A stretch of 64,000 nt of DNA, from the NCBI GenBank assembly GCA_963695095.1, contig CAVOFT010000001.1:2784001-2848000 (forward strand), given 5' to 3'. The DNA is from an uncultured bacterium. Its GTDB lineage: Bacteria > Krumholzibacteriota > Krumholzibacteriia > JACNKJ01. The notes below the pieces were generated by a model, which did no database searches, was not told the DNA's origin, and saw only the letters and a list, made by a program, of their open reading frames with translations. This document shows positions 38,791 to 53,635 of the stretch, one piece after another. The position numbers were made by a program, and so were the translations under genes. Position 1 is the first letter of the stretch, and every line of letters begins with the position of its first letter.

Positions 38791-38821
38791 CGTGTTCCTG
38801 GGGTGAGAGAGCAAGCATGGG

Positions 38822-38842
38822 CGAAGCCCCCTCGGGGCTTCG
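38822..38842. other. Perfect 9-bp hairpin in the 5' region of the next gene
   Basis: CGAAGCCCC-CTC-GGGGCTTCG. Confidence 0.5.
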
Positions 38843-38874
38843 TGTGGTGGTGGACTCACTCAAGGGGAGAAACG

Positions 38875-41800
38875 ATGAAGACGAGGCTTACCCTCAGTGT
38901 TCTTCTGATCGCGCTGCTGGCCTGGCCGGCACTGGCGGCACCGCCGCTGGACCGTCCGGGACCGGCGAGCCATGACGCCCTCAGCCTCACCGGCCGGAGT
39001 ACGGCCGCGAGCACGGCTGTTCAGCCAGTTTACCTCGATCGCGGCGTCGTATCGGATGCCTACCTCTTCGGGGCCGACCGGCTGGAGGCGCTCCAGAACG
39101 ATGACGGCGGCTGGGACTGGGAGCTCGACGATGGCAATCCTGCCAATGTCAGCCCGTTGAACACGATCGGTCCGATCGGCAAGGGCTTGGCAAGGGCCTA
39201 TCTGCATACTCTCGACGGGGACCACCTGGCCGCGCTCGCGCAGACCGGCACCCTGCTCCTGAGCAAGACCAACAACTTCTCGCCCTCGGACGGCTACCTG
39301 GCCGCGCAGCTCGACGCCATCTTCGGCGGCACGACCTACGTGGACCATATGACTGCGAGTTTCTATGACTTCCTGGCCGCCGGCACCTACAACCGGAATG
39401 GCCTCGGCACGCTCTACACGACAGCCGCCTATGTCCAGCTCATCCGCGACAGCCGGACGGGCAGTCAGGCAAACTTGGCTGCCTGGGATTTCGGCATGGG
39501 CCTGGTTGGCGCTCTCGCGGCCGGCGCGCCTACCGCAGCCTGGATCGCCGGCGTCGAGGCCGAGATCGATGAGCTGGACGGCGCTGACTCCTACGACGTC
39601 ATCGGCCTTGCGGGCGCTCTTTATGGCCTCGCTGCCGCCGGCGTCGAGTTCGATCCCACGGCGGGCGAGCATGCCGCCGCATCGAGCCTGGCCGACCTCG
39701 CCGCGATCCTGGCGAGCTACCAGATCGACCTCGGCGGCTTCGCCTGGAACTCCGACTACGTGATCCCCAACGACAGCAACGAGACCATCCAGGAGACGGC
39801 CTACGCGATCCTGGCCCTTGCGGAGGTCGCACGCCCAGAGGACGCCGACAACATCTTCGGAGCCAGCGTCTACCTGCTGAGCGTCCAGCTTGCCACGGGT
39901 GGCTGGGAGAACTACCCCACCAGTGGCGAGAACAACGAAGTCACCGCCGAGGCGCTCTGGGGCCTCGATGCGGCGGGCGCGGAGATCAGCGAAGTCTGGG
40001 TCGACGACGACTTCACCAGCGCCACACCCGGCTGGGGCATCACCCACTTCGCCAGCATTCAGGACGGCATCGATGCGGTGGACGGCAGCACAGTGCATGT
40101 CGCTGCCGGCACCTATGAAGAGCAACTCAACATTGACAAGGTCATCGAGATCGCAGGCGCAGGCAAGGCATTGACCACCATCCTTTCGCCGGTGACCTTG
40201 ACTGATTACTACACGACAAGCGCCGACAACTACCCTGTGGTTTTCGTGCATGACACCGACGGGGTGAACATCCACGATCTCACCGTGGATGGCGCCGGTC
40301 GCGGCAATGCAAACTATCGTTTCATGGGCGTTGCCTTCTACAATGCCGGAGGCACGCTGCAGGACTGCGATGTTGTCGGCATCGAAGACACTCCCTTCAG
40401 CGGCAGCCAGCACGGAAACGCCATCTACGCATGGGACGATATCGCCCCGGCGCACACCGTGAACGTAATCGATTGCGCGGTGAGCGACTTCCAGAAGAAC
40501 GGCATCACCCTGAATGGCTCGCAGTGCACGGGGCATGTCGAGGGTTGTACGGTGACGGGCAAGGGCCCGACGCCCATCACTGCCCAGAACGGCATTCAAC
40601 TCGCCTACGGCGTGACTGCAGCCGTACTCGACTGCGACGTCATGGGCCTCAACTACACCGGCGGCGGCTATGCGGCTGCGGGCATCCTGATCTATCAATC
40701 TCCGTCGGTCACGCTCTCCGGTGACTGGACGGCCACCGACAACTACGTCGGCATCCTCTGTGAGGATAGCAATGCCGACATCAGCGGCGGCTTCATCTCC
40801 AACCAGGACCCCGACAGCTGGGACGGAATCTACGCGCGCAACTTCGGCACTCGCTCCAGCGGCCATGATGGTCGCGGCAGCGCCTCTCCCGTCGAGGAGG
40901 CGAGCAGCTACCAGCCTGGGCGTGCCAATCAGAGCGTGAGCATCTCCGGCGTGACCATTGACGGTCATGATCGTGCGGATAGCTGGGGCATCAACCTGTA
41001 CGCTGCCAGCGAGCAACTCGACGTCGAGATCCAGAACGTCCAGGTAACGGACTTCGACATCGGCATCCGCGCCGTGGAGAATGGCGGCACGGTCACCAGC
41101 AGCACGGGGCAGAGCGTGATCGCCAGCAATGGCACCTTCGGCTTCTATGCCAGCGGCCTGACCTTCCAGGAGGCCACCGGCAACTGGTGGGGTGATGTCA
41201 CGGGACCTTACCACGCCACTAGCAACGCGGGCGGGCTTGCGAATCCCGTCAGCGACTTCGTTGACTTCGACCCCTGGCTCGGCGGCAACGTGGTCTTCGA
41301 CCCGGATCCGCAGGTGATCAACCTGGACGACGCCCCCGGCTACGCGGGCGAGGTGGTGCTGAGCTACCTGGGCGGCGGCTCGGGGCTGGTCTACGGCTAC
41401 TCGATCGACATCGTCTGGGATCCGGCGGTGATCACCAGCGTGGTCGTGGACCTGCCCGACACGGGTCCCTTCGCGATTGCGCCTGTCGTCGGCAGCACTG
41501 CGATCACGAACGGCCGGCGCTTCGACGCTGCGCTCGGCAACACGTCGATCGGGACGAGCATGGCCCCGTTGCTAAAGATCACCTATGTGGCCAACGGCAG
41601 CTTGGACGATGCCGAGTCACCCCTGACGCTCACGCTCAACAATTTCCGCGGCTACCCGAATCAGCCCCTCACCGGCTTCGTCGGAGATGACGGGTTGGTT
41701 ATCGTGGATATCGTGGCGCCTTCCGTGACGGGCGTTGCCATCGTGAACGACACCGTCAGCCCCGTTACCGGTTCGAACGACTTCGTGAAGGACACGGACA

Positions 41801-43313
41801 ACCTCACGGTGACGGCGACGGTCAGCGATGGTAGCGTGCTCACGGCCGCCAACATCAAGGCCGACCTTTCGGACCTTGGTGGCGGCGCGGCGGTCACTCC
41901 GGCGACCTACCTTGGCAACGTGGCAACCTGGAGCATCGCCTCCGCTGCCTGCACGCCTGCCGATGGGGCCCTGAGCGTGGTGGTGACGGTCACCGATCCC
42001 AGCGACAATGTTTCGATGGCCAGCGATGGCATCACGGCCGACAACACACTGCCGACCGTGGTCAGTGGCCTCGTCGTGACGCCGGGACACAACGAAGTCA
42101 ATGCCGTCTGGAACGAGGCCTCCGGTAATGATCTCAACTACTACCGGACCCTGCTCATGACGACGACCTGGGGCGACTATCCCCACTACGCGACGGCGGC
42201 TCCGGCCTATCCCGGCGCCGGGGCGCTCCCCGCCGCCTGGTCAGGCACCGGCACGACGACGACCCTCGCCTACGCGGCTGACGGCAGCGCGCGCGACCTC
42301 GTCTACGTCGGCGCCTTCGTCGTGGACATGGCCCTCAACTTCAGCGCTGCCGACGCGGGCGGTCAGGACCGGGCCACGAACTACTGGCTCGGCGATGTCC
42401 AGCCCGTCAGCTCGCCCCTGGGCGATGGCGACGTGGACGCCCTGGATGTCTCTCAGCTGGGCACAAGCTATGGCCTGGCGGAAGGCGCCGGAGGCTTCAA
42501 CGCCCACTGCGACGTCGGTCCCGACGGACGACTGGAGCGGCACGCGGCGTCCCCGCGCACCGACAACCTCGTCGGCTTCGAGGATCTGATGATCTTCGCG
42601 CTGAACTACGGCGACGTCGGCCCGCGCCGCGTTGCCCAGGGCAGCGAGATCGCGCAGCTCGAGCTGGTTCGCAGACGGCAGGACGGCGATTGGAGCCTCG
42701 TGCTCACCGAGCCCTGCGCCAACCTGAAGGCCCTGCACCTGACGGCCGCGCTGCCCGCGGGCGTCAAGGCCGATGCTGATCCCGGGCGGCAGCTGCTCGA
42801 GCAGCAGGCCGGCCCGGTCTTCCTGCAGCAGATTCCCGGCCAGGGCCTGGATGTGAGCCTCGCGTTCTCGGCCGATGCGGCCTGGTCATCTCGCGGCCAG
42901 GGCGCTGCTCTTCAGCGTGCGCCTGCCGGCGGGGGTCACTCCCGGCGACATCGAGCTCGGCGATCGCGATGCGGCGAATGCCGCTCAGCTCGGCCTTCGA
43001 GCTCGAGCGAGACCACCGACGTGGCCGACCTGCCCACGGTCTACCGTCTCGCGGGCAACTACCCCAACCCCTTCAACCCGAAGACCGCGATCAGCTTCGA
43101 TCTGCCCGAAGTCGCAGTTCGTGACGCTGGCGGTCTTCGGCGCCGACGGCCGGCGCATCGCCACCCTGCTCGACGAGCGGATGGCGGCCGGCCGTCACAG
43201 CGCGATCTGGGACGGCCGCGACGACACGGCAAGCCGGTCGCCACGGGTGTCTACTTCGCGCGCATCGAGGCGGGTCCGCTCGCGGAGACCCACAAGATGC
43301 TGCTCTGAAGTAG
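38875..43313 (+). CDS. Large secreted paralog: prenyltransferase/squalene-cyclase-like alpha-alpha toroid, beta-helix, cohesin-like, Ig, dockerin-like and FlgD-Ig domains; several indels in 42520-43310
   Basis: AAGGGGAG RBS; signal peptide; LQNDDGGW, YQIDLGGF, VQLATGGW repeats; DGDVDALD...VGFEDL; GNYPNPFNP; the ORF track ends at 43308, the paralog-like end (MLLK) would be 43313. Confidence 0.75.
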
Positions 43314-43381: not shown

Positions 43382-44165
43382 ATGCGCCGTCTCCTCTTCG
43401 CCTCGCTGCTTGATCCTCTGGCGCCACGGCCAGCCAGGCCAAGCGTCGAGCTGCGCTTCGATCCTGCCGACCAGCACGTCGACCACCGGCGCGAACGGCA
43501 CGCTCTCGGTCATGGTCGACGATGCGCTGGACATCCGCACGATCGAGCTCACCGTCACCTACGACCCAGCCATCCTCACCAGCCTCGCCGGCATCCCCGG
43601 GCAGCTCTTGACCGCTCGGGCTGCTCGCTGTTCCACGACTTCCAGCATGGCACGGCCGGCCAGTGGTATGGCGCCTGCGTGGCGCTCGGCTTCGACTGCT
43701 GGGTGACCGGCCCCGGCGAGCTCTATCGCTGGACCTTCAACGGCGACGCATCCCGGCACCAGCCCCATCGACGGTCGTCGCAGGTGCGTCTCTACGATCC
43801 CGCAGGCGAACATCATCGCGGACGTCACCCTGCCCGGCACGACGGTGCTCGTCGGCGAGGGCACGGCGAGCCCGCCGCCGCCGGCGCCGGGCCTCGAGCT
43901 GGGCATCGCGCCCAACCCCTTCAATCCGGGCTGCCGGATCACGCTCGCCGCCTCGGCGCCCGGCCCCGCCAGCCTCGAGGTCTTCGACCTCGCCGGTCAT
44001 CGCGTGGCAAGGCCCTGGCAGGGCATCCTGGACGCGGGAGCTACGAGTCTCGACTGGCAGGCCGTCGACAGCGCCGGCCGCCCGCTGGCCAGCGGTGTCT
44101 ACCTTTTCCGCCTCACGGACGCCGCCGGCCGCTCCCTCACCCGCCGGGGCACCCTGCTCAAGTAA
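43382..44165 (+). CDS. Small secreted protein, cohesin-like domain plus FlgD-Ig C-terminal domain; multiple frameshifts
   Basis: AGGAG RBS, MRRLLFASLL; LSVMVDDALDIRTIELTVTYDPAIL; GPGELYRWTF; APNPFNP...SGVYLFRL...GTLLK. Confidence 0.65.
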
Positions 44166-44258: not shown

Positions 44259-45380
44259 ATGGCAGACAAGACCGCCGATCTCGCCGGACCCGGCGTCAGC
44301 ACCTACGAGGAAGTCGCGAAGGCGCTCCCCGTCGGCTACAAGTCCGTGCTCACTCCCAACGAGACGCAGAAGGCCCTCTACGCCGTGAAGCGCGCGATCG
44401 AGGACGGGCTGGCCCGCGAGCTCAACGTGATGCTGGTGCAGTGCCCGCTGATCCTCGACAAGCACAGCGGCATGAACGACTACCTGGACCGCGACGGCTC
44501 GCGCACGCCGGTGGACTTCCTGGCCGGCCTCGGCCTGCCCCAGCGCATGGAAGCGCAGGTGGTGCAGGCGGCCACCAAGTGGAAGCGCTTCGCGCTGAAG
44601 CAGTACGGCTGCCAGGTCGGCGAGGGCATCAACACGGACATGCGCGCCGTGCGCAAGGACTACTTCCTGGACCACGACCACAGCAGCTACGTGGACCAGT
44701 GGGACTGGGAGCGCGTGATCACGGCCAAGGACCGCAACCTCGAGTTCCTCACCATGATCGTCAAGAAGATCTGGAAGGTGCTCGTCGAGGCCGAGGATCT
44801 CGCCCACGACATGTACCCGCAGCTGGACAAGTACGAGAAGATGCCCCGCGAGCTGGTCTTCCTGCACGCCGAGGAGATCCTCGAGCGCTATCCCGACCTG
44901 CCGCGCAAGCAGCGCGAGACGAACATCATCCAGGAGCACCCGGCGATCTTCATCTACGGTATCGGCCACACGCTGGCCGACGGCTACCCCCACGAGATGC
45001 GCGCCGCCGACTACGACGACTGGGTCACGCCCAGCGTGGTCAAGAAGGGCGTGCAGATGCACGGCCTCAACGGCGACATCCTGGTGTGGAACAAGATCAC
45101 GCATCGGCGCCACGAGCTGAGCAGCATGGGCATCCGCGTCACCAAGGAAACGCTCAAGGAGCAGCTCAAGATCACCGGGCAGGAGCACTTCCTCAAGATG
45201 CCCTACCACAAGATGATCCTGAACGACGAGATCCCGCTGAGCATCGGCGGCGGGCTCGGCCAGAGCCGCATCTACAGCTACATCCTCAAGAAGGCCGCCC
45301 TCGGCGAGGTGAGCGTGACGATCTGGCCCGAGCAGCTGCACAAGATCTGCGCGGAGAAGAACATCCACCTGCTGCGCTAG
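44259..45380 (+). CDS. asnA: Aspartate--ammonia ligase (asparagine synthetase A)
   Basis: VVQAATKWKR, TDMRAVR, HSSYVDQWDWE, RAADYDDW, GLNGDILVWN, ELSSMGIRV, SIGGGLGQSR. Confidence 0.94.
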   Translation: MADKTADLAGPGVSTYEEVAKALPVGYKSVLTPNETQKALYAVKRAIEDGLARELNVMLVQCPLILDKHSGMNDYLDRDGSRTPVDFLAGLGLPQRMEAQVVQAATKWKRFALKQYGCQVGEGINTDMRAVRKDYFLDHDHSSYVDQWDWERVITAKDRNLEFLTMIVKKIWKVLVEAEDLAHDMYPQLDKYEKMPRELVFLHAEEILERYPDLPRKQRETNIIQEHPAIFIYGIGHTLADGYPHEMRAADYDDWVTPSVVKKGVQMHGLNGDILVWNKITHRRHELSSMGIRVTKETLKEQLKITGQEHFLKMPYHKMILNDEIPLSIGGGLGQSRIYSYILKKAALGEVSVTIWPEQLHKICAEKNIHLLR

Positions 45381-45659: not shown

Positions 45660-47114
45660 TCACTTCCGGTGATCGCGCACGAAGGCCTCGAGCTCGGGCA
45701 GCCCGCCCTGGAAGACCAGGTAGCCGTCGTGCGTCTCCCGCTCGGTGATGTCGTCGGCCACCGGCGTCGTCATGATGCGGCGGACCTCCTCGAGCTCATC
45801 GCTCTGCCCCAGGGCCCAGCCCAGCTTCATGTAGGCCACCTCGGGCAGCATGTTGGCCAGCGGCGTCACTCCCATCTCCATGATCTCGCGGCCGGTCTCG
45901 TAGACGTACATCTGCACGTAACCCCAGAGCGTCTGCACGGTCATGAAGACGCCCACCCCGGCCGCCCGCGCCCGCTCGATCGCCGGGTAGATGGGCCGGT
46001 TCACGTGCCCCAGCCCCGTGCCCGCGATGACGATGCCACGGTAGCCATGCTCGACGAGCGCGTCGATGACGTCCGCCTTCATCCCCGGGTAGTAGTAGAC
46101 GATCGCTGCCCGGTCGTCGAAGACGGGCGTCACCCGGAATTCCGCGAGCGCGGACGCCTTGGCCTCCGGGCGCCGCCCCTCCACGGCCGTGCGGAAGCGG
46201 CGCGGGTTGTAGTCCTGCCGGATGGGATGCACGCCCTCGCGGCTCACGGTGGCCAGCGGCGTGTCGCTCAGCGAGCGAAAGGTGCTGCGGTAGCTCGAGT
46301 GCATCTTGCGCACGCGGGTGCCCCGGTGGAGCAGGCCGTACTGGTCGCTGGTCGGCCCGAACATGCAGACCATCACCTCGGCGATGTCGCCCTGCCCCGC
46401 GGTCACCGCCGCGTGGATCAGGTTCAGCGCGGCGTCGGAGCTGGGGCGGTCGCTGCTGCGCTGGCTGCCCACCATCACGATGGGCACGGGCGGGTTCTGC
46501 AGCATGAAGCTGAGCACGGCCGCCGTGTGGGACATCGTGTCCGTGCCGTGGCCGATGACGATGCCGTCGGCCCCCGCGCGAATCGCGCTCTCCACGGCCA
46601 GCGCGGTGCCGATCCACTGCTCGGGGCCCATGTTCTCGCTGAAGACGCCGTAGAGCTTCTCGGTCTCCAGGTTGCAGACGTCCGCCAGCTCGGGCACGGA
46701 GCCGTAGAGCTCGCCCGGCGTGAAGGCGGGAATCACGGCCCCCGTGCGGTAGTCCAGGCGGCTGGCGATGGTGCCGCCCGTGCCGAAGAGCTTCACGAAG
46801 GGCTTGCCGGCGTCGCGCGGGAAGGCCTGCTCGGGAATCTTGTAGCGCGCCTCCTTGCGGCCCAGCTCGGTCAGGCGAATCACCGTGTCCGCATGGAGGC
46901 CCACGTTGTAGCCGCTGGCGAGCTTGAGCACGAGGTGATCGGCATCCGCGGTCACGCTGCGGGGCAGGATGATGCCGCGGAAGCGGCCCTGGCTGGTCTC
47001 GGCATCCACATCGCTCCAGACGCCGACGCCTTCCCGCTCGAGCAGGGCGCGGCCCGCCCCGCGATAGCCCTTGAAGCGCTCCTCGCTCGCGTTGGGATTC
47101 ACGGGCTCGCTCAT
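45660..47114 (-). CDS. gatD: Glutamyl-tRNA(Gln) amidotransferase subunit D
   Basis: GatD N-domain LVLKLASGYNVG; TGGTIASRLDYRTGAV, FSENM, HGTDTM, GSQRSSDRPSSD, RKMHSSYRSTF, GTGLGHV, VYETGR, MLPEVAYMKL. Confidence 0.93.
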   Translation of the reverse strand: MSEPVNPNASEERFKGYRGAGRALLEREGVGVWSDVDAETSQGRFRGIILPRSVTADADHLVLKLASGYNVGLHADTVIRLTELGRKEARYKIPEQAFPRDAGKPFVKLFGTGGTIASRLDYRTGAVIPAFTPGELYGSVPELADVCNLETEKLYGVFSENMGPEQWIGTALAVESAIRAGADGIVIGHGTDTMSHTAAVLSFMLQNPPVPIVMVGSQRSSDRPSSDAALNLIHAAVTAGQGDIAEVMVCMFGPTSDQYGLLHRGTRVRKMHSSYRSTFRSLSDTPLATVSREGVHPIRQDYNPRRFRTAVEGRRPEAKASALAEFRVTPVFDDRAAIVYYYPGMKADVIDALVEHGYRGIVIAGTGLGHVNRPIYPAIERARAAGVGVFMTVQTLWGYVQMYVYETGREIMEMGVTPLANMLPEVAYMKLGWALGQSDELEEVRRIMTTPVADDITERETHDGYLVFQGGLPELEAFVRDHRK

Positions 47115-49051
47115 CGCCGCTCCTTTCCCGGCGCCGATCCGGTGGTCACCGTCTGCAGCGCGAGCTGCGCGGCCAGGCGCGCGCCCGCGCAGCTCACGCC
47201 GAGGCTCTCGCGCAGGCGACCGAGGCGATAGCGCCCCAGGCTCCCCTCTGCGAGCGGCCGCGCGGGGGGCGACATCGCGGCAAGGGCCGCGGCCACCCGC
47301 GCCGCCAGGGCGGCGTCGTCCAGGGGCGGCGGCGGCACGGGCCGCTCCTGGCCGCCGCTCCGCGCCCAGCGGGCGAGGGCGCCGCGGTCCGCCTCGCGCG
47401 GCGCGCGGGCGAGAAAGTCGGGCAGCCAGACCAGGCCGGCCGGATCGGGCATGGCCAGACCCTCGCGCTCGAGCGCCCGCCAGTGAGCGGTGAGGAGGAT
47501 GGCCAGGCGCCGGAGGCCGGGGCCGTCCGGCGCCAGCGCTTCGGCCAGGGCGAGGAAGGCCTTGGCCCGGCCCTGGCGCTGGAGCTGGCCGGCCAGCTCG
47601 GCGCCCAGGCCGGTGGCAGCGAGAGCCGCCTCCTCCTCCCAGGGACGCGGGGGCAGCGCGGCGCCGATGCTGTTCCAGTCCGCGATGGGCAGCGGCAGGG
47701 GCGGCAGATCCGTGTCCGGGTACATGCGATCCGGGCCGGGCAGCACGCGCTCGAAGCGCGTGGTGCCGTCCGGCTGCGACTGCCTCGTCTCGCGGGGCAC
47801 ACCGGTCAGGGCTTCCTGGGCGCGCAGCTCGATCTCGCCGAGCGCCGTCTCCAGGTCGCGGGCGCCGCCCCAGACCATGAGGATGGGCGGGTCCTCGCCG
47901 ATGCCCAGCACCTGCCGCACGCGCTGCCACTCGCTCCAGGTGGGCCCGTCGTCGAGCTGCTCGCTGGAGACGAGGTTGGGATTGCGGTCCAGGCAGGCGA
48001 CCACGCGCACGCGGTCGCGGAACTCGCTCAGGAAGCGTACGCCCGGCTGCACCTCGCGGCGCAGCACCCCCTCGAAGCCGGGCAGGGCGATGGCGCCCAG
48101 GCGGTCGCCTCGCGCCAGGGCCTTCTGCACCGGGCGATACTGGCAGGTCTTGAACAGCCCCGACACCTCGGCGCGCAGGCCCTGGTAGCCCAGGGCGGGC
48201 AGGCCGCGCTCGACGAGCAGCTCGCGAATGTCCAGCAGGCTCTTCTGGCGCAGGGCCTCGTTGTGCACCAGGCGGCCGATGACGGGGATGCGGCTCACGC
48301 CCTTGATCTCGATGCGCGTGCCGCCGCGCACGCTGACGTTGACATCCTGCCGCGAAGCGCCCGCCCCGCGGCGCACCTTGCCCGTGATGCGGGTGAGGCG
48401 CCGCACCGCCTGGGCGGCGGCCTCCACCTCGGCGGGCGTGGCCAGCTCGGGAGCGGTGACCACCTCGATCAGGGGCATGCCCAGACGGTCGGTGCGGTAG
48501 CAGCGCAGGTGGCCCTGGTCCGAGAGCTCGCGGCTGGAGTCCTCCTCGATGCTGAGCTGCAGCACGCCCAGCGGGCGGCCGCTGGCGGGCAGGCTGCCCT
48601 GCACGCCGAGAATCGCCGTGCGCTGGAAGCCCGCCGGGATCGAGCCGTCCAGGTACTGCTTGCGCATCACGTGCAGCTCGCCCACGGGCTGCAGGCCCAG
48701 CAGCAGGGTGATCTCCATGGCGATGGCCAGGGCCTCGGGGTCGATGGCGAAGGGCGGCGCGTCGTCCATCTCGTAGGTGCAGACGCTGGCCTTGTTCAGC
48801 CGGTAGAGGATCTCCTTGCGCGTCTTGAATTCCATGAGCGCCGTGCCGTCGTACTCGCCAAGCTCGGAGAGCGTGGGCCGCATGTGGCGCAGGATCTCGG
48901 CGTCGAAGGCGTCGCTGTAGAGCCCGGCCGGGCAGCGGCAGAAGAGCTTGCGCCGGGTCAGGAGCTGGACGTGCACCTCCAGGCCGGCCACGAGGCCCAG
49001 GGCGGCATAGTCGTCGGCACTGAGCGTGCCGTACTCGGGCAGTTGCGACAT
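47111..49051 (-). CDS. gatE: Glutamyl-tRNA(Gln) amidotransferase subunit E
   Basis: GLEVHVQL, KLFCRCP, RPTLSELGEYD, MRK..LDGS...GFQRT, IEEDS, DRLGMPLIEV, VRRGAGASRQDVNVSV, IEIKGV, GAD-like insertion, VPRETR, RVLPGPDRMYPDTDLPP; ATGA overlap with gatD. Confidence 0.93.
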   Translation of the reverse strand: MSQLPEYGTLSADDYAALGLVAGLEVHVQLLTRRKLFCRCPAGLYSDAFDAEILRHMRPTLSELGEYDGTALMEFKTRKEILYRLNKASVCTYEMDDAPPFAIDPEALAIAMEITLLLGLQPVGELHVMRKQYLDGSIPAGFQRTAILGVQGSLPASGRPLGVLQLSIEEDSSRELSDQGHLRCYRTDRLGMPLIEVVTAPELATPAEVEAAAQAVRRLTRITGKVRRGAGASRQDVNVSVRGGTRIEIKGVSRIPVIGRLVHNEALRQKSLLDIRELLVERGLPALGYQGLRAEVSGLFKTCQYRPVQKALARGDRLGAIALPGFEGVLRREVQPGVRFLSEFRDRVRVVACLDRNPNLVSSEQLDDGPTWSEWQRVRQVLGIGEDPPILMVWGGARDLETALGEIELRAQEALTGVPRETRQSQPDGTTRFERVLPGPDRMYPDTDLPPLPLPIADWNSIGAALPPRPWEEEAALAATGLGAELAGQLQRQGRAKAFLALAEALAPDGPGLRRLAILLTAHWRALEREGLAMPDPAGLVWLPDFLARAPREADRGALARWARSGGQERPVPPPPLDDAALAARVAAALAAMSPPARPLAEGSLGRYRLGRLRESLGVSCAGARLAAQLALQTVTTGSAPGKERR

Positions 49052-49256
49052 CGGGGGCTCCGGAAAAGAGGGAAGCGCTGCAGCCCCGCAAGGTACAGGA
49101 CCCGACCGGGCTTTTCCAGCCTCCTGCCGACCGGAGTTTCGCTTGCCTCGCAAACTCATGGGGGGGAGCCACATGGCTCCCACTTCGCGCTTCCGGCCGC
49201 GACTTTCGGATGACGACGGAGCGCCGCCCTGCTAGGCTGCGCGCGGGAGGATTATC

Positions 49257-50045
49257 GTGCGCAGCCTGAACCTGTCCCCCTTCTGGCGCTGGGCCATCGC
49301 CCTCGTGCTCGCTCTCGCCGGGCTCTTCGCCCAGCGCATGCTCTCCAGCAAGCTGCCCCTCGCCGTGCTCGTCGACTGGGAAGGCCGCCAGGTGACTGCC
49401 GAGCTCGCCCGCAGCCACGTCGGCCCGGGCGGCCAGCGCTTGAGCGTCCAGGGCCTCGATGCCAACTGGACGGGCGAGCTGATCTGGCGGCCGGCCGGCG
49501 AGGGCAACTTCACGCGCATGGCCCTGCGCAATCTGGGCAGCCTCATCACGGGCGAAATCCCGGCGCAAGCGCGGGGCGCGCAGGTGGAGTACCGGATCGA
49601 GATCACGACACCGCGCGGGCTGCTGCGGCTGCCTGCCCACGGCACCGTGATCACGCAGTTCCGGGGCGCGGCGCCGCTGTGGGTGAGCCTGCCGCATATC
49701 GTGTTGCTCGCGTTGGGCTTGCTGCTGGCGATGCGCGCGGGCATGGAGGCCCTCGCCCTGGGCGATCACGCGCTGGGTTTCGCCAGCGGCAGCCTGCTGG
49801 CCTTCCTCGGCGGCGGCCTCATCCTGGGCCCGCTGATGAAGCACCATGCCTATGGGTTCCTCTGGGCGGGGCCGCCGCAAGGCCTGGACAGCACCGACAC
49901 CAAGACCCTGATCCTGGTGCTCGCCTGGCTGCTGCCGTTCCTGCTCCGGGCCCGCGGCCGGCGCGTGCGGCGCTGGATCCTTCTCGCCGCTGCTCTGAGC
50001 CTGGCCGCCTTCCTCATCCCCCATAGCAGCTTCGGCCCGGCCTGA
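49257..50045 (+). CDS. Hypothetical membrane protein (N-terminal TM, soluble beta domain, about 4 TM)
   Basis: GGAGG RBS, GTG start, hydrophobicity pattern. Confidence 0.7.
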   Translation: MRSLNLSPFWRWAIALVLALAGLFAQRMLSSKLPLAVLVDWEGRQVTAELARSHVGPGGQRLSVQGLDANWTGELIWRPAGEGNFTRMALRNLGSLITGEIPAQARGAQVEYRIEITTPRGLLRLPAHGTVITQFRGAAPLWVSLPHIVLLALGLLLAMRAGMEALALGDHALGFASGSLLAFLGGGLILGPLMKHHAYGFLWAGPPQGLDSTDTKTLILVLAWLLPFLLRARGRRVRRWILLAAALSLAAFLIPHSSFGPA

Positions 50046-51625: not shown

Positions 51626-53635
51626 ATGAATACTCAGTTTCCCGCTCGAGCTCGAGAGCGGCAAGCGACCCCGGCCCTCCGCGCGCTCCTCCTCGCCCTC
51701 GCCCTCGGCGCCGCCCTGCCCTGCACCGCCGAGGAGGCGCCGGCCCCCGTCCCCCAGTACATCGCCCTGGATGACAGCACCTATGTGAAGGTCTACGCCC
51801 TCGACGCGATGGTGGTGACCGGCTCGCGCACCGAGCAGCGCCTGGCCGACGTCACCGTGGCCACCGAGCTCATCCAGCGCGAGGACCTGGAGCGCTCGGG
51901 TGCGCCCGATCTGGCCGAGTTTCTCGAGAAGCAGGCCGGCGTCGTGGTCAACCACAGCCTCTTCGGCAGCGGTATCCAGCTGCAGGGCCTGGGCAGCGAG
52001 TACGTGCTCGTGCTCGTCAACGGCGAGCGGGCGCTGGGGCGCAAGGGCGGCGTCATCGACCTCTCGCGCTATGCCACGGACAACATCGAACGCGTCGAGG
52101 TGGTGAAGGGCAACCAGTCGGCGCTCTACGGCGCCGACGCCATCGGGGGCGTCATCAACATCATCACCCGCGCCAGCCGGCAGCCCCTGGAGATGGACCT
52201 GCGCGGGGATTTCGGCGACGGCGGCGCCCGCGACCTCGGCGCCAGCCTGGGCTACCGCGGCAAGCTGTGGACGAGCCGCACGACCGGCAGCTGGGACGAG
52301 GCCGCCGCCTACGATCTGGCGCCGGCGGACCCCGAGACGAGCGTCGACGCCTTCGAGGAGCTGAGCCTGGCCAACCACAGCGAGTGGCGCCTGGCCGAGC
52401 GGCTGCAGCTCAAGGGCGACGCCAGCTACATCTCGCGCGATCAGATAGGCGTGGACGGCGGCACCGTCGCCTCGCCCGCCGTCTTCGACCGCACGGCGAA
52501 GACCGAGATCGTCTCCTTCGCCGCCGGGCCCGACCACCACGGCGCCGACGGCAGTCGCAGCAAGGGCAGCCTGCAGTTCAGCTACTACCTGGACCAGTAT
52601 CTCGCCGACCAGCGCGGCTCCACGGCCCTGGACCAGTACCAGGAAACCCGCCAGCGGCTCCTGCACGCCTCGGCCCAGCACGATCGCCTGCTGCCGGGCC
52701 GCCATCTGCTCTCGGGCGGCGCCGAGGCCTTCCAGGAGTGGATCGAGACGGAGCGACTGGTGGGCGGCGAGGGCGATCGCGAGCGGCTCGGACTCTTCCT
52801 GCAAGATCAATGGGAGCAGGGGCCCCAGGGCCGCCTGAAGCTGATCGGCGGCCTGCGCCTGGACAGCGACTCCCAGTTCGGCAGCCATCTGACGCCCAAG
52901 CTCAGCTTGCGCCGGGACATCGGGGAGACGCTCATCCTCCGCGCCGGGCTGGGCTCGGGCTACCGAGCGCCGGACTTCAAGGAGCTGTACATCTACTTCG
53001 CCCACCCGGCCGTGGGCTACGTGGTCTACGGCAACCCGGAGCTGCAGCCGGAGATCTCGCGCAGCGCGAACCTGGGCCTGGAGTGGCGCAGCCGCCAGGG
53101 CTTCTGGTTCTCGGTGAACGCCTTCCACCACGACTTCGAGAACCTGATCCAGGGCCTCATCACGGACGAGATGGTGGGCGGTCTCAGCAAGGCCATCTAC
53201 GTGAACGTCGCGTCGGCGACGATCCAGGGCATCGAGGCCAGCCTGCGCCTGAGGCCGCTGCCGGCCCTCGACTGCGAGCTGGGCTACGCCTTCCTCGACA
53301 GTCGCGACGAGGAGACGGGCGGCATCCTGGACGGCCGGCCGCGTCACCGCGGCACGCTCAACCTGGACTATCGCTTCGTGCGGCTCGCAGCCAACCTCTC
53401 TCTGCGCGCCTCGCTGGTCGGCGAGCGCAGCTTCACGCAGGAGACCAGCGGCCTGGCCTCCACGACGGCCGATCCCTATGCCCTGATCGACCTGCGCGCC
53501 AGCAAGGAAGTGGGCGCCCACCTGGGCCTGTCCCTGGGCGTCAAGAACATCCTCGACGCCGGCGACCACGACTACCTGCGCGTGGCGCCGCGCCGCGTCG
53601 TCGCCGGCTTCAATCTCCGCCACGGCAAGAACTAG
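51626..53635 (+). CDS. TonB-dependent outer membrane receptor (HmuR-like)
   Basis: MVVTGSRTE, LVLVNG, IERVEVVKG..SALYGADAIGGVINIIT plug; YRAPDFKELY, GNPELQPE. Confidence 0.93.
   Translation: MNTQFPARARERQATPALRALLLALALGAALPCTAEEAPAPVPQYIALDDSTYVKVYALDAMVVTGSRTEQRLADVTVATELIQREDLERSGAPDLAEFLEKQAGVVVNHSLFGSGIQLQGLGSEYVLVLVNGERALGRKGGVIDLSRYATDNIERVEVVKGNQSALYGADAIGGVINIITRASRQPLEMDLRGDFGDGGARDLGASLGYRGKLWTSRTTGSWDEAAAYDLAPADPETSVDAFEELSLANHSEWRLAERLQLKGDASYISRDQIGVDGGTVASPAVFDRTAKTEIVSFAAGPDHHGADGSRSKGSLQFSYYLDQYLADQRGSTALDQYQETRQRLLHASAQHDRLLPGRHLLSGGAEAFQEWIETERLVGGEGDRERLGLFLQDQWEQGPQGRLKLIGGLRLDSDSQFGSHLTPKLSLRRDIGETLILRAGLGSGYRAPDFKELYIYFAHPAVGYVVYGNPELQPEISRSANLGLEWRSRQGFWFSVNAFHHDFENLIQGLITDEMVGGLSKAIYVNVASATIQGIEASLRLRPLPALDCELGYAFLDSRDEETGGILDGRPRHRGTLNLDYRFVRLAANLSLRASLVGERSFTQETSGLASTTADPYALIDLRASKEVGAHLGLSLGVKNILDAGDHDYLRVAPRRVVAGFNLRHGKN

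Follow-up and report, generated by a model that had tools for sequence, protein, structure and literature searches.

An archaeal-type GatDE gene pair in a Krumholzibacteriota chromosome and its standing among bacterial routes to Gln-tRNA

How does a bacterial chromosome come to carry both subunits of GatDE, a tRNA-dependent amidotransferase called an "archaeal signature protein" in a 2008 review (PMC2330236), and what would the enzyme do in such a host? The question is raised by a 64,000-nucleotide stretch of DNA (the window; positions 2,784,001 to 2,848,000 of the forward strand of contig CAVOFT010000001.1, assembly GCA_963695095.1) from an uncultured bacterium of the class Krumholzibacteriia, in which gatE (49051..47111) is followed on the minus strand by gatD (47114..45660). 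A first-pass annotation, made from the letters of the window alone, had read the pair as archaeal-type GatDE and had proposed that the lineage may make Gln-tRNA by an ameliorated archaeal pathway. The identity was confirmed and a replacement of GlnRS or GatCAB was not, as detailed below.

Identity and architecture of the gene pair

The two window genes are genuine members of the GatD and GatE families, carried on a bacterial chromosome. The 484-residue product of gatD, an asparaginase-type glutaminase subunit with the GatD N-terminal domain, scored 480 bits against TIGR02153 gatD_arch (cut-off 324) and 477.8 bits against NF003217 (cut-off 310), compared with 363 bits for type I asparaginase. 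Its Pfam domains were GatD_N, Asparaginase and Asparaginase_C, the first of these (PF18195) matched at 38.7 bits (cut-off 25.7) over residues 39-77, and its best PDB sequence matches were archaeal (1zq1_A, E 2.1e-113, and also 2d6f_A), with the best plain asparaginase at 1e-38. The 646-residue product of gatE, the kinase/amidotransferase subunit, scored 383.3 bits against TIGR00134 gatE_arch (cut-off 319.55), with the match ending at profile position 509 (span 3-509 of 622), and 101.5 bits against the gatB model; a further score of 452.9 bits against NF003107 fell just below the cut-off of 456. Here too the best PDB sequence matches were archaeal (1zq1_C, E 4.4e-91; 2d6f_C, E 3.3e-86), with the best GatB at 4.2e-21. 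Both proteins thus exceed curated cut-offs of their own families, well above the asparaginase and GatB scores, and the profile scores together with the PDB ranking rule out an identity as AnsA and GatB.

Both reading frames are intact. The motifs named in the first-pass annotation were located in GatD at residues 64 (KLASGYNVG), 112 (TGGTIAS), 189 (HGTDT), 217 (SQRSSDRPSSD) and 269 (RKMH), and in GatE at residues 62 (SELGEYD), 141 (GFQRT), 234 (RQDVNVS) and 442 (RMYPDTD). A Thr nucleophile plus a Thr-Lys-Asp triad has been described for GatD (PMC2330236), and the corresponding motifs of the window protein (TGGTIAS, HGTDT and RKMH) align at motif level with P. abyssi GatD. In M. thermautotrophicus GatE, Mg is bound by His15, Glu157 and Glu184 (PMC2330236). 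These align to H27, E169 and E196 of the window GatE, three residues that do not vary among 54 aligned GatE sequences from bacteria and archaea, Asgard, Thermoprotei and DPANN members included. The catalytic and tRNA CCA-pocket motifs of GatE were likewise invariant between bacterial and archaeal sequences, and only five positions (residues 70, 92, 97, 173 and 446) distinguish the bacterial consensus from the archaeal one; locating these five relative to the tRNA requires the coordinates of a tRNA complex.

An AlphaFold2 model of GatE was built on the 54-sequence alignment (mean predicted local distance difference test score, pLDDT, 90.4) and compared with known structures by VIA-align. The predicted layout is a cradle, an AspRS-like insertion at about residues 286-417 and, at about residues 470-640, a tail with helical and YqeY-like parts. 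The model overlaid on 2d6f_D at Z 39.0 (model residues 13-562), on full-length GatB 3ip4_B, tail included, at Z 29.7 (residues 17-645), on AspRS insertion domains at Z 12-13 (residues 286-417) and on the YqeY protein 8xje_C at Z 6.9 (residues 493-634). Because these overlays cover each of them, all four GatE domains appear to be present in the modelled protein. The GAD-like insertion claimed from the letters alone is plain in the predicted structure, where it coincides with the overlay on the AspRS insertion, and the Pfam GAD match was not significant (E 0.037). The tail gave no Pfam match even at E ≤10 when searched alone; its model pLDDT was 76-94 until about residue 630, and many close GatE homologues carry PF02637 and PF02938. 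A conserved motif of the tail reads LMGxxMKxxRGKxDGK in archaea versus RLGRLRESLGVSCAGAR in the window GatE.

The best sequence and fold matches of the pair are the archaeal GatDE enzymes of M. thermautotrophicus (2D6F) and P. abyssi (1ZQ1), which it resembles in subunits, domain set, Mg ligands and asparaginase-type triad motifs, the archaeal GatE chains being 33-37% identical to the window GatE (Foldseek). Bacterial GatCAB is a more distant comparison: GatB is paralogous to GatE, the kinase/amidation chemistry is the same and a YqeY-like tail is present in GatB and predicted in the window GatE, whereas in the window system ammonia is released by an asparaginase-type GatD rather than an amidase-type GatA, there is no GatC, and GatE carries the AspRS-like insertion and reaches only the 101 bits given above on the gatB model. 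As had been noted in the first reading, the two intact genes are joined by an ATGA (47111..47114) made of the gatE stop codon (TGA) and the gatD start codon (ATG), as read directly in the sequence. This overlap suggests translational coupling, and gatE followed by gatD is most likely a two-gene operon.

Distribution, tree position and residence in the lineage

Relatives of the pair were collected by scanning one genome for each prokaryotic species, which gave at least 585 stretches encoding a relative; the best 80 of these, all bacterial records with many phylum labels, were used. The closest matches were 78-91% identical, and the named ones at 57-78% identity were labelled Krumholzibacteria; by the names their sources give them, the closest homologues belong to Candidatus Krumholzibacteriia. 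By NCBI labels the bacterial GatDE clade takes in Krumholzibacteriota, Ignavibacteriota, Bacteroidota, Aminicenantes, Myxococcota, Gemmatimonadota and others. The first-pass annotation could not say whether such bacterial homologues were already characterised. They are abundant and commonly carry the labels GatE and GatD in public databases, NCBI and JGI already using the name GatE; no paper discussing bacterial GatDE was found in the searched literature, which mostly excludes subscription journals. The window copy is unremarkable within a large clade that is labelled in databases yet under-discussed. In the 41 genomes of the class that were surveyed, the window's own included, GatD scored over its cut-off in 30, with one more gene broken by a contig end, and GatE-type sub-threshold matches to the gatB model were found in 31, the same 31 as for GatD.

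Gene order was compared across 81 loci (the best 80 plus the window) and asnA and tRNA neighbours across 109 (29 from relatives and 80 from other lineages). gatD stood beside gatE in 76 of the 81 loci, the two sharing a strand in 75 of these 76 and being mostly directly adjacent. The window copy has the gatE-then-gatD order of its clade and shows no substantive difference from it beyond a convergent asnA neighbour and a more diverged tail in its own family. Leaving aside GatE, GatD and open reading frames that overlap the two in a different frame or on the complementary strand, the most widespread cluster occurred in no more than 10 of the 81 loci, and the annotated recurrent clusters were unrelated housekeeping or regulatory genes. 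No glutamine synthetase was seen among the 21 of 22 recurrent neighbour clusters that were annotated, with no search aimed at that enzyme. A tRNA-Gln(CUG) gene lies directly upstream of gatE in one of the 109 loci (L105:5860-5934, in an Acidobacteriota-labelled genome), and tRNA-Gln was therefore ruled out as a regular gatE neighbour.

In the window itself, an AsnA-type aspartate-ammonia ligase gene (44259-45380, plus strand; TIGR00669 283.6 bits, cut-off 292.8; Pfam AsnA 266.9) is convergent with gatD, 280 bp from the gatD stop. asnA adjoined gatD in 5 of the 29 loci from relatives, all five in the window's own family, and in none of the 80 loci of other lineages, which rules it out as a general conserved neighbour. 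Since archaeal GatD can use Asn as an amide donor (PMC2330236), a link in which AsnA supplies amide to GatD is conceivable for this family, though not as a general feature.

For the phylogeny of GatE, 585 proteins at E ≤1e-30 were obtained from 1.84 billion cluster representatives by an exhaustive HMMER search. A FastTree phylogeny of 121 of the best 150 representatives (560-720 residues), the window and the host GatB was split three ways, into a 38-row group with the window, a 78-row group and a few basal rows. An IQ-TREE phylogeny (LG+G4, 78 rows, 632 columns) was computed from 32 of the 80 loci (at most three per phylum label, with full-length open reading frames), 44 of the 150 representatives, the window and the host GatB, with supports given as ultrafast bootstrap / SH-like approximate likelihood ratio test. 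The 32 labelled bacterial rows, the window and five representatives, two of which bear bacterial names, formed a clade (98/98), and this clade with five unnamed representatives was supported at 100/100 with a stem length of 0.31. A Heimdallarchaeota-labelled cluster was sister to the bacterial GatE clade (100/97), a group of Thorarchaeota and Odinarchaeota joined next (100/97), and the bacterial and Asgard sequences together were nested among those labelled Thermoprotei, Parvarchaeota, Aenigmarchaeota and Methanofastidiosa. The window GatE thus falls within a bacterial clade that itself lies inside archaeal GatE. The tree is rooted on one long GatB branch, composition varies among its rows, most representatives are unnamed, and the labels come from metagenome bins, some of them given for a 90%-identity cluster member and not for the row as such. 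Within these limits, the topology favours one old transfer of GatE from archaea to bacteria over inheritance from a common ancestor.

Reviews that term GatDE archaea-only (PMC2330236; PMC9499178) would lead one to suspect that the pair was imported recently, arose as an assembly chimera or is a relic in decay. Against this, the window sits 2.78 Mb into a contig of 3.61 Mb, the whole genome measuring 3.64 Mb (estimated 93.5% complete), both frames are intact with invariant catalytic residues, and the pair is present in 30 of the 41 class genomes, with the asnA neighbour shared at family level. The host-like codon style that had been judged by eye is borne out by the G+C content at third codon positions (0.953 for gatD and 0.946 for gatE versus 0.925-0.975 in eight other host genes). 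Public sequencing runs were also searched, and none contained more than 0.10 of the sampled words of the locus; four runs held fragments of relatives only, at 88-99% likeness, for which depth and coverage are unusable and bridging contigs usable. Such contigs of relatives, from independent studies, cross the border between asnA and gatD (X2 record 11) and that between gatE and its upstream sequence (X2 record 14). A contig from an RNA library, a type of library that can contain DNA, joins gatD into gatE (X20 record 18). Neither a chimera nor a recent island can be upheld, an explanation by recent import, chimerism or decay is extremely improbable, and the gatE-gatD pair is native and long-resident in the lineage.

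Gln-tRNA routes and the probable role of bacterial GatDE

The scan of the host genome for glnS, gatCAB and gltX that had been suggested at the outset found GlnRS (711 bits), AsnRS (446 bits), two bacterial-type GluRS and a gatA-gatB pair immediately preceded by a gatC-like open reading frame (44 bits, cut-off 47.1). Because the genome encodes GlnRS, gatC-gatA-gatB and two GluRS, GatDE would be an extra route to Gln-tRNA and is not the sole one, and the idea that this lineage uses an archaeal pathway in place of GlnRS or GatCAB is not supported. In this the window's host differs from the setting of archaeal GatDE. In a separate part of the host genome (C1:3413737-3419037), GluRS, tRNA-Gln(CUG) and tRNA-Glu(CUC) genes lie on one strand, followed by GlnRS about 2 kb on.

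Across the 41 class genomes, AsnRS was found in all, GlnRS in 34 (and in one more broken by a contig end) and GatB in 32. GatDE and GatB occurred together in 22 genomes, GatDE only in 9 and GatB only in 10, with no genome having neither, so that bacterial GatCAB and GatDE interchange across the class. All nine GatDE-only genomes (93-100% complete) have GlnRS, while GatB is present in each of the six genomes that lack GlnRS (86-97% complete), and GatDE in just one of these (G024). Every class genome retains at least one amidotransferase whether GlnRS is present or not, the pattern to be expected were Glu-tRNA(Gln) produced across the whole class and in need of conversion. Among 24 GatE-bearing genomes of other lineages, GlnRS was found in 22, the remaining two having GatB, and GatB was found in 10. 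After two entries with identical coordinates and scores (G043 and G027) were merged, 54 distinct GatDE-bearing genomes remained, of which 51 have GlnRS and the other three GatB. These counts are descriptive, the genomes being related, and with just three GatDE-bearing genomes free of GlnRS they carry no claim that GatDE is insufficient on its own.

As the indirect pathway is understood, the sole GluRS of a genome without GlnRS must charge tRNA(Gln). Three class genomes (G015, G020 and G025) have a single GluRS and no GlnRS, and because of this gene content a non-discriminating GluRS can be said to exist in the class. A further genome of the window's family (G010; 2.2 Mb, 96% complete) has GatCAB, AsnRS and two GluRS and is without GatDE, GlnRS, AsnA and AsnB; on the strength of this pattern of loss, with GatCAB kept, it appears to have reverted to purely indirect pathways.

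On the substrate side, both host tRNA(Gln) genes (UUG and CUG) combine U1-A72 with D-loops of 7-8 nucleotides. In the tRNA(Glu) genes the first pair is G1-C72 or G1-U72 and the D-loop measures 10-11 nucleotides; tRNA(Asn) has U1-A72, as tRNA(Gln) does. The first pair read by archaeal GatDE is A1-U72 and that read by bacterial GatCAB is U1-A72, and archaeal GatDE rejects tRNA(Glu) by its extra D-loop bases (PMC2330236). The D-loop rule against tRNA(Glu) would still be workable in this host, and the first-pair rule would need to be reversed.

The data show the family to which the genes belong, their intact catalytic residues, domain architecture, native status, distribution and place in the tree; from these we infer a substrate, an activity and a reason for the retention of the operon. 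The preferred reading, to which we give a probability of roughly 0.6, is that the bacterial GatDE operon would be one of three routes to Gln-tRNA(Gln), beside GlnRS and GatCAB, amidating Glu-tRNA(Gln) that carries U1-A72. The amidation of Glu-tRNA(Gln) is the known activity of both GatDE and GatCAB (PMC2330236). By analogy with the solved archaeal enzyme, Glu-tRNA(Gln), supplied by a GluRS that fails to exclude tRNA(Gln), would be bound by GatE; GatE would phosphorylate the glutamate side chain with ATP at the Mg site formed by H27, E169 and E196; and GatD would free ammonia from Gln or Asn, which would pass through an internal tunnel to GatE for the amidation. The bacterial U1-A72 form of tRNA(Gln), rather than the archaeal A1-U72 form, would be accepted.

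Several observations weigh against this reading. The host tRNA(Gln) has U1-A72 and the archaeal enzyme reads A1-U72, so that either recognition has changed or the substrate differs. The GatE tail, which is expected to contact the D-loop, is too diverged from archaeal GatE for detection by Pfam, and its motif is eroded in the window's own family, with only the glycines G611 and G623 kept. No enrichment of GatDE is seen where it would be most needed: five of the six GlnRS-less class genomes are without GatDE and use GatCAB, and none of the 54 GatDE-bearing genomes depends on GatDE alone. Nor does GluRS copy number track the operon (GatDE in 20 of 25 genomes with two GluRS versus 10 of 15 with one), and it was ruled out as a marker of GatDE. 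The reading moreover presumes a non-discriminating GluRS in the host. Discrimination can be judged at the position of Arg358 in T. thermophilus GluRS (PMC2978374); in a PDB search with the first host GluRS that protein ranked seventh, and the three alignments obtained were all to T. maritima GluRS2. The searched literature also yielded no paper that assays a bacterial GatDE.

Two other functions were weighed against the amidation of Glu-tRNA(Gln). The enzyme might be an Asp-tRNA(Asn) or dual-specificity amidotransferase that replaces GatCAB in tRNA-dependent Asn synthesis. Since U1-A72 is common to tRNA(Asn) and tRNA(Gln) of the host, a GatE retuned to that pair could recognise both; the interchange of GatDE and GatCAB across the class points the same way, as do the link of GatCAB to Asn synthesis in bacteria with GlnRS and AsnRS (PMC4206432) and the position of asnA next to gatD in the window's own family. 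The asparagine synthetases argue otherwise. All nine GatDE-only class genomes have AsnA or an AsnB-family synthetase over or at cut-off (AsnB-family counts include paralogues of other function), so none of them needs tRNA-dependent Asn synthesis, and the four genomes without AsnA or AsnB over threshold (G010, G014, G015 and G024) all have GatB. In G029 an AsnB-like match was found below cut-off only, and GatB is kept. AsnRS is moreover universal in the class, and archaeal GatDE rejects Asp-tRNA(Asn) (PMC2330236). The distribution of these synthetases fits a Glu-specific GatDE, and a role in Asn synthesis is unlikely. A slightly less improbable alternative, though still a doubtful one, is that GatDE supplies nothing to translation and has another role, for instance amidating a different aminoacyl-tRNA, or a carrier, towards a product outside translation, or sensing amide nitrogen. 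It would account for GlnRS standing alongside in 51 of 54 genomes, for the diverged tail domain and for GatDE never being the sole route in the genomes examined; what it leaves unexplained is the invariance of the catalytic and CCA-pocket motifs with archaeal GatE, the apparently full four-domain architecture, the mere five positions that split the bacterial from the archaeal consensus, and the lack of any conserved neighbour hinting at another pathway among the 81 loci (none in more than 10).

As a separate observation on asparagine synthetases, the sole AsnB-family match of the host (C1:3367166-3368859) is split over two frames (profile positions 1-309 and 307-517). The gene is in a single frame in close relatives, and the split may reflect a frameshift or an error of assembly.

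A broader extension of the Glu-tRNA(Gln) reading is tentative: GatDE may be no substitute for GlnRS but a regular companion of it, derived from one ancient transfer from a Heimdall-like Asgard archaeon to many bacterial phyla, retuned from A1-U72 to U1-A72, and kept interchangeably with GatCAB since a GluRS would still charge tRNA(Gln) despite the presence of GlnRS. On that view, to have two Gln-tRNA routes in parallel would be normal for these lineages and not a passing stage. Activity on a U1-A72 tRNA would call for a second look at how GatDE recognises tRNA, at the co-evolution of GatDE with archaeal tRNA(Gln) only, and at the view that acquisition of GlnRS makes the indirect pathway redundant. 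The window alone is one more intact bacterial copy and adds little; the wider survey adds its context, in which GatDE of the sampled genomes is in no case the sole route to Gln-tRNA and nearly always stands with GlnRS, swaps with GatCAB in one class and nests beside Asgard enzymes.

Other features near the pair and in the host genome

Upstream of gatE, a Shine-Dalgarno-like GGAG (49058..49061, minus strand) lies 6 nucleotides 5' of the ATG, identified by resemblance to the consensus only. About 200 nucleotides upstream of gatE, a consensus scan found a sigma-70-like promoter candidate (GGGACA, a 16-nucleotide spacer and GATAAT; 49251..49278, minus strand), one site against 0.1 expected in shuffled sequence, which is a matter of resemblance and not functional proof. 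Farther out on this side, the bacterial character of the flanks described in the first-pass annotation was upheld for the TonB-dependent receptor at 51626-53635.

Beyond asnA on the other side, a 1501-residue open reading frame (38803-43308, plus strand) gave a weak beta-helix match alone, and its tail shifts frame into a short open reading frame (43845-44165, plus strand) with a FlgD-Ig-like sorting-type C-terminal domain; the two may belong to a single large secreted protein interrupted by a change of frame, or be separate genes. Elsewhere in the host genome (C1:736525-736612), ARAGORN reported an 88-nucleotide tRNA-like gene of 76% G+C with a four-base anticodon, gcat, of type Cys or Met.

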